A DNA stretch of 64,000 nucleotides from Escherichia coli O157:H7 (GCF_013167455.1 NZ_CP038328.1), one strand, 5' to 3'. Positions 11,460 through 20,993 are shown, counted from the stretch's first letter. The notes: generated from the letters alone by a model not told the origin. Numbers and translations are program-made.

Positions 11460-11722
11460 ATATTGCCGGATAAATTAAACGCCTCTGTCAGTAATGATGG
11501 GGGCGTTTTTATTTTGCGAGCAGCATTCCTGATTTTAAACGTGAACGCCGCTGGAAGAATTATCAGGTATAGAATGGCGTCGGGTGCTTGAGGCTGTCTG
11601 GCGTTAAGCATTCGCGAGGTTCCAGATGGACAAAAGCCCCAGGCGATATTTCTATCAACCTGAGGCTCGCGTTCGAACGTAGCAATTCGGATGTTAGTCT
11701 CTTCTTTGCAGGGAGGCAAGAC

Positions 11723-11875
11723 ATGCTAACAAAATATGCCCTTGTGGCAATCATAGTACTGTGTTGTACAGTACTGGGATTCACGCTCATGGTAGGCGAC
11801 TCGTTATGTGAGTTGAGTATCAGAGAGCGTGGTATGGAGTTTAAGGCAGTTCTCGCTTACGAATCGAAGAAGTAG
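11723..11875 (+). CDS. Hok/Gef-family type I toxin (small membrane peptide), hokX-like position
   Basis: 50-aa [53 protein letters not shown]; Hok-like TM segment plus SLCE...AYE motif; GC stem-loop follows. Confidence 0.7.
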
Positions 11876-11880
11876 CCACC

Positions 11881-11902
11881 ACGCGGGGGTAAAACCCCGC
11901 GT
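11881..11902 (+). terminator. stem-loop at 3' end of hok-like transcript
   Basis: acgcgggggtaaaaccccgcgt inverted repeat. Confidence 0.4.
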
Positions 11903-12066
11903 ATTGAATTGTGATGGTTTGGTCTCCTGTACCCTTTTTTAAATTTATATTTTTTATGTGAATATATAGTCTCTATTTATCATTATGAATTTCAAATGAA
12001 AATCATTAATTTATTCATAATATAAATGTTTATTGGCTGATATATATCACAGATAATTTTTAAAAT

Positions 12067-14766
12067 ATGCGTAAATATCCTTTAAGTTTACTGAAGGATA
12101 AAAATATTGTGACTTTCTTTGATTTCTGGGGAAAAACCCGACGTGGCGAGAAAGAGGGTGGCGACGGCTATCACCTTCTTTGCTGGCATTCGCTGGATGT
12201 GGCCGCAATGGGCTATTTAATGGTTAAAAGAAATTGCTTCGGGCTGGCTGATTACTTTCGTCAATTAGGGATTTCTGACAAGGAACAGGCGGCTCAATTT
12301 TTCGCTTGGTTGCTGTGCTGGCACGATATTGGAAAATTTGCCCGCTCTTTTCAGCAACTTTACCTGGCCCCTGAACTCAAGATTCCGGAAGGTTCCAGAA
12401 AGAATTACGAAAAGATCTCTCATTCAACGCTGGGTTACTGGCTGTGGAATTATTATTTAAGTGAATGTGAGGAGTTGCTTCCTTCATCTTCACTCTCTTC
12501 TCGTAAACTTACACGTGTAATAGAGATGTGGATGTCCATAACTACCGGGCATCATGGTCGACCACCTGACCGTATTGATGAGCTGGATAATTTTCTGCCT
12601 GAAGACAAAGCTGCCGCGCGAGATTTTCTCCTTGAAATCAAGGCACTGTTTCCGCTCATAGAGATTCCCACATTCTGGGATGATGACGAGGGCGTTGAAC
12701 TTTTAAAACAACTTTCCTGGTATATCTCTGCAACAGTCGTACTCGCAGACTGGACGGGTTCGTCAACGCGATTTTTTCCACGCGTCGCACACCCAATGGA
12801 TATTAAAGATTACTGGCAGAAAACTTTAGTTCAGGCTCAAAACGCCTTAACCGTCTTTCCTCCAAAAGCAGAAACCGCACCTTTCACCGGAATTAATACG
12901 CTGTTTCCTTTTATTGAGCACCCGACACCATTACAGCAAAAGGTACTGGATCTGGATATCAGCCAGCCAGGGCCACAGTTATTTATTCTGGAAGACGTGA
13001 CTGGCGCAGGTAAAACAGAAGCGGCGCTTATCCTGGCGCACAGGTTGATGGCTGCGAGGAAAGCACAGGGTTTGTTTTTTGGCCTGCCAACAATGGCAAC
13101 GGCCAATGCCATGTACGATCGGCTGGTCAAAACCTGGCTTGCTTTCTATTCGCCAGAGTCCCGCCCCAGCTTGGTGCTGGCACACAGTGCCCGCACATTA
13201 ATGGACCGCTTCAATGAATCACTCTGGTCCGGTGATTTAGTCGGGTCAGAAGAACCGGATGAACAAACATTCAGTCAGGGATGTGCGGCCTGGTTTGCCA
13301 ACAGTAACAAGAAGGCGCTACTGGCTGAAATTGGCGTCGGCACGCTGGATCAGGCGATGATGGCAGTGATGCCGTTTAAACATAATAATCTGCGGCTTCT
13401 GGGGTTGAGTAACAAAATCCTGCTGGCTGATGAGATCCATGCCTGTGATGCTTACATGTCGTGCATTCTTGAAGGGCTGATCGAGCGGCAGGCGCGTGGC
13501 GGAAACAGCGTCATTTTGCTTTCTGCTACGTTATCCCAACAGCAGCGCGACAAACTCGTCGCCGCCTTTGCGCGTGGCACAGAGGGCCAGCAAGAAGCTC
13601 CGTTCCTTGAAAAGGATGATTACCCCTGGCTGACGCATGTCACGAAATCCGATGTGAACTCACACCGGGTAGCGACGCGCAAAGACGTTGAGCGTAGCGT
13701 CAGCGTGGGTTGGCTTCATAGTGAACAAGAGAGTATTGCGCGTATCGAATCGGCGGTAAGTCAGGGAAAATGCATCGCCTGGATCCGGAATTCTGTCGAT
13801 GACGCTATTAAGGTTCATCGTCAGCTGCTTGCCCGCGGCGTCATTCCCGCTTCCAGCCTTTCACTCTTTCATAGCCGCTTTGCTTTTAGCGATCGCCAGC
13901 GAATTGAAATGGAGACGCTGGCACGCTTTGGTAAAGAAGACGGTTCACAGCGTGCCGGAAAAGTCCTCATTTGTACTCAGGTCTTAGAGCAGAGCGTTGA
14001 TTGTGACCTGGACGAAATGATCTCCGACCTGGCCCCTGTTGATTTGCTGATTCAGCGAGCGGGGCGATTACAGCGGCATATCCGCGATATTAATGGTCAG
14101 TTAAAGCGTGACGGAAAAGACGAGCGTTCCCCTCCTGAATTGCTGATTCTGGCCCCCGTCTGGGACGACGCTCCTGGTGACGAATGGTTCGGCAGTGCCA
14201 TGCGTAACAGTGCATATGTCTATCCCGATCATGGACGAATCTGGCTGACGCAGCGTGTACTGCGTGAGCAAGGCGCTATTCAAATGCCACACGCAGCCCG
14301 CCTTCTTATTGAATCAGTCTACGGTGAGGACGTGGTAATGCCGGAAGGATTTGCCCGCAGCGAGCAGGAGCAAGTGGGCAAATATTACTGCGATCGCGCA
14401 ATGGCTAAAAAGTTTGTCCTGAACTTCAAGCCTGGCTATGCCGCCAATATCAACGATTACCTTCCGGAAAAGCTGTCGACACGTCTGGCTGAGGAATCTG
14501 TTTCCCTGTGGCTGGCTACCTGTATTGCCGGTGTGGTGAAGCCTTATGCCACCGGTGCTCACGCATGGGAAATGAGCGTTGTCAGAGTGCGTCGAAGCTG
14601 GTGGAAAAAACATCGGGATGAGTTTTCTTTACTGGAAGGGGAAGCGTTCAGGCAGTGGTGCATTGAACAGCGGCAAGATCCGGAAATGGCAAACGTGATT
14701 TTAGTCACTGATGACGAAAGTTGCGGGTATTCGGCCAGGGAGGGATTGATTGGCAAGGTTGATTGA
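12067..14766 (+). CDS. cas3: Cas3 HD nuclease/helicase (type I-E)
   Basis: 899-aa ORF; HD motif (LLCWHDIGKF), Walker A (GAGKTEAA), DEIH; alternative GTG start at 12109 possible. Confidence 0.9.
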   Translation: MRKYPLSLLKDKNIVTFFDFWGKTRRGEKEGGDGYHLLCWHSLDVAAMGYLMVKRNCFGLADYFRQLGISDKEQAAQFFAWLLCWHDIGKFARSFQQLYLAPELKIPEGSRKNYEKISHSTLGYWLWNYYLSECEELLPSSSLSSRKLTRVIEMWMSITTGHHGRPPDRIDELDNFLPEDKAAARDFLLEIKALFPLIEIPTFWDDDEGVELLKQLSWYISATVVLADWTGSSTRFFPRVAHPMDIKDYWQKTLVQAQNALTVFPPKAETAPFTGINTLFPFIEHPTPLQQKVLDLDISQPGPQLFILEDVTGAGKTEAALILAHRLMAARKAQGLFFGLPTMATANAMYDRLVKTWLAFYSPESRPSLVLAHSARTLMDRFNESLWSGDLVGSEEPDEQTFSQGCAAWFANSNKKALLAEIGVGTLDQAMMAVMPFKHNNLRLLGLSNKILLADEIHACDAYMSCILEGLIERQARGGNSVILLSATLSQQQRDKLVAAFARGTEGQQEAPFLEKDDYPWLTHVTKSDVNSHRVATRKDVERSVSVGWLHSEQESIARIESAVSQGKCIAWIRNSVDDAIKVHRQLLARGVIPASSLSLFHSRFAFSDRQRIEMETLARFGKEDGSQRAGKVLICTQVLEQSVDCDLDEMISDLAPVDLLIQRAGRLQRHIRDINGQLKRDGKDERSPPELLILAPVWDDAPGDEWFGSAMRNSAYVYPDHGRIWLTQRVLREQGAIQMPHAARLLIESVYGEDVVMPEGFARSEQEQVGKYYCDRAMAKKFVLNFKPGYAANINDYLPEKLSTRLAEESVSLWLATCIAGVVKPYATGAHAWEMSVVRVRRSWWKKHRDEFSLLEGEAFRQWCIEQRQDPEMANVILVTDDESCGYSAREGLIGKVD

Positions 14767-14863
14767 GATACCTGCGACAGGACTCTCTGAATAGTTGATA
14801 CACCGAAAAGGATGGAATGATGGACAACCGACCAGGGATGGTCTTTTTTACGAGAGGATACAT

Positions 14864-16426
14864 ATGAACTCGTTTTCACTTCTGACAACCCCGTGGTTGC
14901 CCGTTCGTTTTAAAGACGGAACAACAGGCAAGCTGGCGCCAGTCGATCTGGCGGATGAAAATGTTGTCGATATCGCTGCGCCGCGGGCAGATCTCCAGGG
15001 GGCGGCATGGCAGTTTTTGCTGGGGTTACTACAAAGCAGTTTCGCGCCAAAAGATTATCGTCGTTGGGATGATATCTGGGAAGACGGGCTGGAAGCTGAA
15101 AAGCTACGGGAAGCATTGCTGTCATTAGAACACCCTTTCCAGTTTGGCCCAGATTCACCTTCATTTATGCAGGATTTCGAGGTGCTCATGGGCGATAAAG
15201 TTCAGGTCGCTTCGCTACTGCCTGAGATTCCCGGCGCTCAAACAACGAAGTTTAATAAAGACCACTTTATTAAGCGTGGCGTGACTGAACACGTATGCTC
15301 TCATTGTTCTGCGTTAGCTCTGTTCTCCCTACAGTTAAATGCGCCGTCAGGTGGCAAAGGCTATCGCACCGGTTTACGCGGCGGTGGGCCGATGACGACT
15401 CTGATTGAATTGCAGGAGTATCAGGGTAATCAACAAGCCCCCTTGTGGCGCAAACTGTGGCTCAACGTGATGCCGCAGGATGAAGCCGACTTACCGCTAC
15501 CCAAAAAATTTGACGATCTGGTTTTCCCCTGGCTTGGCCCGACGCGTACCAGCGAACTGGCCGGTGCGGTGGTAACCGATGATCAGGTCAATAAACTCCA
15601 GGCGTACTGGGGAATGCCGCGGCGTATTCGTATTGATTTTAATACCACGACAGTCGGCAACTGCGATATTTGCGGTGAGCAGAGTGACGCGCTTCTGAGT
15701 TTGATGACTACCAAAAATTACGGTGCGAATTATGCCATGTGGCAGCATCCCTTAACGCCTTACCGTGTACCACTTAAAGAGGGCGGTGAGTTTTACTCCG
15801 TTAAACCACAACCGGGCGGTTTAATCTGGCGCGACTGGTTAGGCCTTATCGAAACGGGTAAGTCAGAAAACAATACGGAACTTCCCGCGCTGGTGGTGAA
15901 ACTCTTTAATGCCAGCAGTCTGAAACAGGCAAAAGTGGGCCTGTGGGGATTTGGTTATGATTTCGACAACATGAAAGCGCGCTGTTGGTACGAACACCAT
16001 TTCCCGCTGCTGCTCAATAAAAAAGAAGGCCAGATACCGAAGCTGCGGCTGGCTGCGCAAACGGCTTCACGGATTCTGAGTCTGTTACGGAGTGCATTGA
16101 AAGAAGCATGGTTCTCCGATCCAAAAGGTGCAAGGGGTGATTTCAGTTTTGTGGATATCGACTTCTGGAACAAAACTCAGCATCGCTTCCTGAGGTTAGT
16201 GCGCCAAATTGAAGAAGGTCAGGATGCGGATGAATTACTCGGCAAATGGCAAAAGGAAATTTGGTTATTCGCACGTCAGGATTTTGACGAGCGTGTATTC
16301 ACCAATCCTTATGAGCCCGTTGATTTGGAACGCGTCATGACCGCGCGCAAGAAATATTTTACAACATCGGCGGAGAAGCAAAGTGCTAAAGCCGCCAGGG
16401 AGAAAAAGCAGGAGGCTGCTGAATGA
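14864..16426 (+). CDS. casA: Cascade large subunit Cse1/CasA
   Basis: ORF 14795..16426; ATG 14864 after GAGAGGA; first gene after cas3. Confidence 0.85.
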   Translation: MNSFSLLTTPWLPVRFKDGTTGKLAPVDLADENVVDIAAPRADLQGAAWQFLLGLLQSSFAPKDYRRWDDIWEDGLEAEKLREALLSLEHPFQFGPDSPSFMQDFEVLMGDKVQVASLLPEIPGAQTTKFNKDHFIKRGVTEHVCSHCSALALFSLQLNAPSGGKGYRTGLRGGGPMTTLIELQEYQGNQQAPLWRKLWLNVMPQDEADLPLPKKFDDLVFPWLGPTRTSELAGAVVTDDQVNKLQAYWGMPRRIRIDFNTTTVGNCDICGEQSDALLSLMTTKNYGANYAMWQHPLTPYRVPLKEGGEFYSVKPQPGGLIWRDWLGLIETGKSENNTELPALVVKLFNASSLKQAKVGLWGFGYDFDNMKARCWYEHHFPLLLNKKEGQIPKLRLAAQTASRILSLLRSALKEAWFSDPKGARGDFSFVDIDFWNKTQHRFLRLVRQIEEGQDADELLGKWQKEIWLFARQDFDERVFTNPYEPVDLERVMTARKKYFTTSAEKQSAKAAREKKQEAAE

Positions 16427-19415: not shown

Positions 19416-20625
<1,210 letters not shown>

Positions 20626-20720
20626 GTTATGTGTTCTTTAAAAATAAGGAAATGTTTGAATTTAGTTGGTAGATTGTTGATGTGGAATAAATTTGTTTAA
20701 AAACAGATATGTATGCTTAG
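20626..20720 (+). promoter_or_regulatory. CRISPR leader (AT-rich)
   Basis: 95-bp AT-rich stretch between cas2 stop and first repeat. Confidence 0.7.
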
Positions 20721-20993
20721 TGTGTTCCCCGCGCCAGCGGGGATAAACCGTCACCAAAACAGTGACAAAAACTGTCACCAAAGTGTTCCCCGCGCCAGCG
20801 GGGATAAACCGCTCATATTCGGATTGATCGTGTGTTTCGGTTTGTGTTCCCCGCGCCAGCGGGGATAAACCGGCCCAGGGATTTGTTCAATCCAGCGTGC
20901 CGCTGTGTTCCCCGCATCAGCGGGGATAAACCGGGCGCACTGGATGCGATGATGGATATCACTTAGAATTCCCCGCCCCTGCGGTAGAACACC
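20721..20993 (+). CRISPR. Type I-E CRISPR array: 4 full 29-bp repeats, four 32-bp spacers, degenerate terminal repeat
   Basis: Repeat GTGTTCCCCGCGCCAGCGGGGATAAACCG at 20721, 20782, 20843; variant at 20904 (GCATCA loop); degenerate copy 20965..20993. Confidence 0.95.

Follow-up and report, generated by a model that had tools for sequence, protein, structure and literature searches.

[quoted passage not shown] The locus of E. coli O157:H7 raises the question of how the more prevalent E1 variant is controlled, for which an extremely AT-rich block of DNA upstream of cas3 is the obvious candidate region. We analyzed this block within a 64,000-nucleotide stretch of O157:H7 DNA, referred to throughout as the window.

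The DNA around the block matches E. coli O157:H7 genomes, EDL933 included, at 100% identity, and the RefSeq gene order reads cysJ, cysI, cysH, a Hok/Gef toxin gene, cas3, casA, casB, cas7e, cas5e, cas6e, cas1e and cas2e, with iap on the opposite strand. The hok gene (50-aa Hok ORF) lies at 11723-11875, cas3 is annotated on the plus strand at 12067-14766 (899 aa), and casA starts at 14864. This Cas set is the "cas-E1" (or "cas-EO") variant and not the "cas-E2" of K-12 (Diez-Villasenor 2013; Almendros 2014, PMC3903273). The E1 leader 40-mer occurs in 2623 + 133 of 5426 complete E. coli genomes (in its TTT and TTTT forms, respectively), and the AT-rich block is found together with an E1 cas3 in 2230 genomes; cas-E1 is a common variant, carried by roughly half of sequenced E. 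coli with complete genomes, O157:H7 among them. The E1 cas genes have a host-like composition (48.4% A+T; cas3 itself 49%), and the only AT islands of the module are the cas3-upstream block and the CRISPR leader (20581-20730, plus strand, 78% A+T) at the opposite end of the cas locus. The block is not itself a CRISPR leader by the features examined, as it has no adjoining repeats and no similarity to the leader at 20626-20725. In EDL933, upstream of the cys genes (L001 1770-4720), ygcS is annotated as frameshifted and ygcQ contains an internal stop, a feature unrelated to the block.

A+T content, scanned in windows of 100, 132 and 162 bp, peaks for the entire 64 kb at 11934-11936, reaching 88%, 85.6% and 82.7%, respectively, against a window mean of 46.7% (sd 5.6-6.4) and runner-up peaks of 71-77%. 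The occurrence of 113 A/T among 132 positions at p=0.467 has a binomial tail of 1e-20, or 8e-16 after multiplication by 64,000 positions, and elsewhere in the window intergenic peaks that bear promoters, the CRISPR leader among them, attain only 70-78% A+T in 80-bp windows. The original prediction of a strongly AT-rich block upstream of cas3 is borne out in this respect, although its figure of roughly 85% holds for the 132-bp core at 11935-12066 (85.6%), whose first base is also that of the sequence it quoted, and not for the 11905-12066 interval to which it was applied (79.6%), where the first 30 positions (11905-11934) are 53% A+T. Dinucleotide and hexamer content are skewed as well: within the block, TpA steps number 16.2 per 100 bp versus 3.9 in the window (about 4-fold), and -10-like hexamers 12.0 versus 1.7 (about 7-fold).

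The upstream limit of the block was defined by comparison with the 5426 complete genomes. Cas-less E. coli match the window to 11941, after which homology ends (...gcaccctttttta|tactctg... in cas-less genomes versus ...gtaccctttttta|aatttat... in O157), and because it stops exactly there, 11942 is on this evidence the 5' edge, and the first sequence, of the cas-E1 module. The preceding 37 positions, 11905-11941 (plus strand, about 50% A+T), comprise an fbi-like segment (11921-11934) and a T6 run (11935-11940), have 82% invariant columns among 12 E1-type sequences, and are assigned to the hok flank because they are conserved in cas-less strains; judged by this homology they are the hok 3' tail, to which the AT block proper, from 11942 onward, does not belong. 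The start of the originally predicted interval at 11905 was thus misplaced, taking in hok flank with no link to cas. The fbi-like segment is complementary to the 5' region of hok mRNA (11582-11595); tac/fbi pairing was not relied on to identify 11905-11941 as the 3' end of hok, since the duplex is energetically no better than shuffled controls. No non-coding DNA other than the block separates hok from cas3, and the block travels with the cas-E1 module, being present in E1 genomes and absent from cas-less and K-12-type genomes. K-12 (E2) diverges from the hok ATG onward into unrelated sequence, with a 133-bp region of 63% A+T before cas3; there, the E2 module took the place of everything after the hok ATG, leaving sokX.

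The hok side of this boundary has features of its own. The hok/sok system appears intact in O157 (window 11582-11875), with sok at 11582-11738 (Rfam RF01794, 105 bits) and the 50-aa Hok ORF, and since hok is transcribed toward cas3, its transcripts might conceivably continue into the AT block. Inverted-repeat and RNA-fold analyses identify, directly behind the hok stop codon and outside the AT block, a G+C-rich hairpin at 11877-11903 (plus strand; arms 11881-11888 and 11895-11902), which contains an insertion hot spot for IS421/IS186-type (IS4-family) elements, as seen in genomes with split matches at 11886-11897 and in an IS421 transposase annotated at the hok-adjacent hairpin of one locus (L027). 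In many genomes, and in E. albertii, an IS sits exactly at the hairpin and parts hok from the AT block. A 357-bp fragment equivalent to window 11886-12242, spanning the AT block and the 5' end of cas3, is also found on a 245-kb conjugative IncHI2 plasmid (NZ_MN732922.1, positions 3001-3359 of L031), near an IS421 copy and hok genes, and looks like an IS-mediated capture from the chromosome. Plasmid copies were rejected as evidence of module mobility, as three of the four are mislabelled chromosomes (4.8-4.9 Mb) and the fourth is this IS421-associated fragment. Outside E. coli, a 7-kb "Collinsella sp." MAG contig encodes a Cas3 96% identical to that of O157 and is probably E. coli contamination of the bin, and a contig assigned to Pseudocitrobacter vendiensis has this hok flank together with the AT block and cas3 (about 91% identity), suggesting transfer or misassignment (L012 and L015).

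The downstream limit depends on where cas3 begins. The block does lie directly before the cas3 start, as originally described, if the RefSeq ATG at 12067 is used; the conserved start, however, is probably the GTG at 12109, and the annotated first 14 codons (12067-12108, plus strand; MRKYPLSLLKDKNI) are most likely a 5' untranslated leader, as judged from several features of the sequence. In alignments with Cas3 homologues of Salmonella, Citrobacter, Klebsiella, Phytobacter, Intestinirhabdus and E. albertii, the alignable part starts at residue 15, and most homologues from those genera have a GTG at the equivalent start position; likewise, position 4 of NCBIfam NF007248 corresponds to residue 14 and residue 10 of K-12 Cas3 to residue 20. 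A Shine-Dalgarno-like AAGGA (12094-12098) lies 10 nt upstream of the GTG, with none such before the ATG. E. albertii has no ATG here, and a 1-nt indel in a T run places the ATG out of frame in four of the 12 sampled E1-type sequences. Read from the GTG (12109-14766, plus strand), the gene encodes 885 aa of the cas-E1 type I-E variant, an assignment drawn from RefSeq, NCBIfam Cas3 families and ORF analysis.

The T-run indel has consequences for annotation. Among complete genomes, 133 carry the TTTT form and 2623 the TTT form, and reading from the GTG gives an intact ORF of 885 aa in all four TTTT loci that were translated (three of the 133 genomes and Escherichia sp. L003). In the three genomes, from chicken, human and pig, cas3 is labelled "frameshifted" by PGAP (TTTT or frameshift-label loci L025, L028, L029 and L030), and the TTTT-genome Cas3 is 94% identical to that of O157, with 92 synonymous versus about 51 non-synonymous changes. 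The annotated start, apparently 14 codons too early, thereby leads to a "frameshifted" label in roughly 130 complete genomes, a probable mis-annotation that affects surveys of strains with complete CRISPR-Cas systems.

With cas3 most likely starting at GTG 12109, the AT-rich non-coding block extends over 11942-12108 (167 bp, 82.6% A+T). In the 12 E1-type sequences, the ATG-to-GTG segment is its most conserved part, with 79% invariant columns compared to 76% for the first 450 nt of cas3 (57% at third codon positions). Conservation at the level of coding sequence despite a frame-breaking indel suggests that 12067-12108 is under constraint as nucleotide sequence. This putative leader can fold into a 9-bp hairpin (12076-12084/12092-12100) in which AAGGA pairs with UCCUU (dG -8.2 kcal/mol), and one variant replaces a U-G pair by C-G; as an element sequestering AAGGA it was set aside, given a z of -1.4 and minimal covariation. 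No RNA gene was found in the block with Rfam at a permissive E-value, the only hit being sok at 11582-11738, and its small ORFs are limited to trivial ones overlapping the flanks.

Immediately upstream of the putative leader, the proximal block (12018-12066, plus strand; 66% invariant columns) contains two overlapping candidate sigma-70 core promoters, called from a consensus scan and a position weight matrix (PWM) scan. Candidate (a) combines a -35 TTTATT (12029-12034) and a -10 GATAAT (12052-12057) across a 17-bp spacer (PWM 8.43), and ranks among the three best plus-strand sites in seven of the 12 E1-type sequences; candidate (b), with a -35 CTGATA (12037-12042), an 18-bp spacer and a -10 TAAAAT (12061-12066), scores higher (PWM 9.73), is the sixth best of its kind on the plus strand of the 64 kb, and occurs in the O157 sub-lineage. 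The best plus-strand sigma-70-like sites of the cas 5' region are located inside the block, although individual calls deserve little weight because the block is saturated with -10-like hexamers and TpA steps. Transcription start sites predicted from (a) and (b) fall at about 12064-12073, at or past the annotated ATG, in agreement with the GTG start and a leader of 36-45 nt. A palindrome, TGATATATATCA, occupies 12038-12049. Because CRP activates cas3 in K-12, a CRP-like site (GCTGA-N6-TCACA, 12036-12051) was considered and rejected: 20 matches occur in the window at two mismatches versus 23.6 expected, and it would lie across the core promoter. A literature search for cas3 transcription start data from O157 or other E1 strains returned nothing usable.

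Taken together, these observations make it very probable that the block is the promoter and leader region of cas3. The fuller reading that we favor, and regard as probable, is that 11942-12108 holds the promoter and the leader of cas3 in the type I-E module cas-E1 and comes under H-NS control. According to this model, sigma-70 RNA polymerase would start near 12064-12073 through the -10 elements at 12052-12057 and/or 12061-12066, both served by poor -35 elements, to give a 36-45-nt leader with an AAGGA ribosome-binding site that a small hairpin could enclose. H-NS (and StpA) would nucleate on the TpA-rich tract (83% A+T) that covers the core promoter and the DNA upstream of it, and would occlude or trap the polymerase, keeping cas3 low until a LeuO-type antagonist or changed conditions intervene.

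How far transcripts from the block would extend is a separate matter. The block was originally proposed as the promoter region of the cas operon; position and comparison support a promoter region for cas3, whereas its extension to the whole operon is uncertain. Transcripts may run on into casA-cas2, the least certain step of the model, because casA is preceded by no separate AT island or good promoter match: the 97-bp cas3-casA gap (14767-14863, plus strand, 55% A+T) and the last 860 bp of cas3 contain no AT island, and the best promoter score there is about 7.1 in the PWM scan, versus 9.7 in the block. These same data weigh against an alternative whose chances come only just short of even, namely that the block serves cas3 alone and that Cascade, cas1 and cas2 are transcribed from a promoter in the 3' end of cas3 or in the gap. 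That alternative draws on a terminator-like hairpin followed by T6 (GACCAGGGATGGTC, 14830-14849, plus strand) and on the separate promoters of cas3 and cse1 in K-12 (PMC7019758). It is further favored by S. Typhi, where the cas3 unit is reported to be separate from a cse1-cas2-CRISPR operon with its own LeuO/H-NS/Lrp-controlled promoter (PMC8039139), even with a cas3-cse1 gap of only 0-11 bp in close relatives of that system. The same short gap in five related genera, including Salmonella, Citrobacter, Klebsiella and Phytobacter, counts for a transcript shared by cas3 and casA. The hairpin before casA and the separate Cascade promoters of K-12 and S. Typhi argue against a single operon; the hairpin, however, has a stem of only 5 bp, ends 14 nt before the casA ATG, and would also have to be read through from an upstream casA promoter. 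The gap is an Escherichia-specific insertion (97 bp here, 83 bp in E. albertii).

On balance we consider it unlikely that the block is the main promoter of the entire cas3-cas2 cluster. Less likely again is the broader proposal that in cas-E1 and its Salmonella, Citrobacter and Klebsiella relatives the AT island is a master nucleoid-protein switch for one eight-gene transcript from cas3 to cas2. If true, the nuclease and Cascade would be co-regulated, in an architecture unlike the K-12 paradigm, where the H-NS/LeuO island separates cas3 from casA and Cas3 is limiting in its own right.

H-NS prefers AT-rich, TpA-rich DNA, and the block may plausibly be a short H-NS target, in line with the original prediction of H-NS-type silencing. 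The case is built from composition and analogy, and we put binding and repression by H-NS at this site at somewhat better than an even chance. The K-12 cas and CRISPR promoters are H-NS-repressed (PMC8616872), and the cas3 of S. Typhi, compositionally similar upstream, is described in PMC8039139 (citing Medina-Aparicio 2017) as an independent, H-NS-silenced unit. A long silencing filament is argued against by the shortness of the island (about 170-245 bp) and by flanks that are not AT-rich (about 50% G+C; cas3 is 49% A+T). In K-12 ChIP-seq data, H-NS regions shorter than 1 kb behave as gentler, transcription-factor-like modulators, with 40% of targets changing in an hns mutant (PMC3064808). 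A search of the literature for H-NS ChIP, EMSA or hns-mutant data on O157 or the E1 variant found none, and the EHEC hns transcriptome supplements searched do not list cas genes under the names used.

The shortness of the island, bordered by DNA of about 50% G+C, equally fits a second alternative, that the promoter operates without H-NS silencing, its AT-rich DNA being UP-element-like or simply tolerated, and that cas3 is low and constitutive or regulated otherwise, for example by CRP or pH. The K-12 precedent points the same way, as its cas3 promoter is active and CRP-dependent, and rises only slightly in an hns mutant compared to 20-fold for cse1 (PMC7019758). The high-affinity H-NS 10-mer (TCGATAAATT, up to two mismatches) is not enriched in the block, where it matches once; the motif is over-represented across the window and was rejected as uninformative. 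Nevertheless, the block, with its dense TpA steps and 83% A+T, resembles an H-NS target far more than does the DNA before K-12 cas3 (63% A+T), the S. Typhi unit is reported to be silenced, and the CRP-like site is no better than chance. A promoter free of H-NS silencing is on these grounds doubtful, if worth keeping in view.

The distal block (11942-12017), in the favored model a putative H-NS patch or UP-like region, evolves quite differently from the DNA that follows it. Invariant columns make up only 25% of it, and pairwise mismatch amounts to 16.6% and gaps to 11%, values that make it more variable than cas3 third codon positions, and Escherichia sp. MOD1-EC7003 tolerates a 41-bp deletion within it. 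It contains the inverted repeats ATTATGAAT/ATTCATAAT and ATTTATATT/AATATAAAT. In the alignment of the 12 sequences, the distal half keeps nothing except its A+T composition, whereas the proximal 90 bp keep their sequence. This hypervariability, the lack of similarity to anything else examined, and the adjoining IS hot spot and module boundary would suit a third alternative, in which 11942-12017 is a functionless relic of cas-E1 acquisition or of a rearrangement junction and only the last 60-90 bp matter. However, high A+T has been kept in all E1 sub-variants despite the fast turnover of sequence, and at least five other genera, with unrelated sequences, are likewise AT-rich before cas3, which suggests selection on composition, as an H-NS-type or UP-type function predicts; a mere relic accordingly seems improbable to us.

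The block also contains a minus-strand promoter-like site (11961-11989; -35 TTCATA, 17-bp spacer, -10 TATATT at 11966-11961) that faces the hok 3' end; it may be a spurious promoter such as H-NS suppresses, or may yield RNA antisense to hok. A divergent transcript antisense to the 3' end of hok mRNA in the O157 sub-lineage, resembling that from the anti-Pcas promoter of K-12, is in our view quite unlikely, for although no site on either strand of the 64 kb outscores this one in the PWM scan (11.64) and the consensus scan also reports it, it is confined to the O157/D5/504838 sub-lineage (three of 12 block variants), lies in DNA where -10-like hexamers are 7-fold enriched and spurious matches many, and is associated with no evident terminator or conserved product.

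The AT-rich block upstream of cas3 is therefore a genuine and statistically extreme feature of an ordinary nature, very probably the promoter and leader region with which a cas module subject to horizontal exchange begins. Its closest counterpart in the literature is probably IG4, an element that lies, like the block, between hok/sok-IG3 and the E1 cas3, and is reported from every E1 strain and from none besides (Almendros 2014, mBio, PMC3903273). The homology breakpoints found here reproduce this distribution, with E1 and with neither cas-less nor E2 genomes. The probable identity of the block with IG4 is drawn from the text of that paper, where IG4 figures as a structural marker of module exchange without an assigned function.

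Among regions of K-12, the IGLB is likewise an AT-rich island of a type I-E locus (414 bp, 71% A+T, peak 80%) and carries promoters, including a divergent one; its Pcas and anti-Pcas are silenced by H-NS and relieved by LeuO, as summarized in a later paper (Pul 2010, Westra 2010, via PMC8616872). In contrast to the O157 block, however, the IGLB sits between cas3 and casA, has no sequence similarity to the block, and is a demonstrated H-NS binding region, where the block is a putative one. The K-12 region that resembles the block in position is IG5, the cas3 promoter region, which is short, lies directly upstream of cas3 and downstream of a sok/hok remnant, and is activated by CRP (Yang et al. 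2020, PMC7019758), but is only 63% A+T over 133 bp, is unrelated in sequence and responds only slightly to hns. The control island of the E1 variant would thus depart from that of K-12 in its position, upstream of cas3, and in the lack of an AT island before casA.

The arrangement in O157 is shared more closely with other genera. Type I-E loci of Salmonella, Citrobacter, Klebsiella and Phytobacter have an A+T peak of 70-82% upstream of cas3 and none before cse1, whereas in K-12 the A+T content is 65-68% where cas3 starts and peaks, at 80%, in the 414 bp that separate cas3 from casA. Salmonella, whose Cas3 belongs to the same clade as that of O157 (about 70% identity), peaks at 74-76% upstream of cas3 and, as in O157, not before cse1; its upstream region nonetheless cannot be aligned with that of O157, has no hok flank, and is accompanied by a cas3-cse1 gap of about 0-11 bp versus 97 bp. 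Compared by blastn-short with K-12 IG5 and IGLB, with the DNA preceding cas3 in ten other genera, with the CRISPR leader and with the remainder of the window, the block showed no homology, all matches being chance 11-12-mers. Because these upstream regions share no sequence, it is composition and position that are conserved across the E1 and Salmonella-like clade, and these place the AT-rich DNA of O157 with that of Salmonella and its relatives, upstream of cas3.
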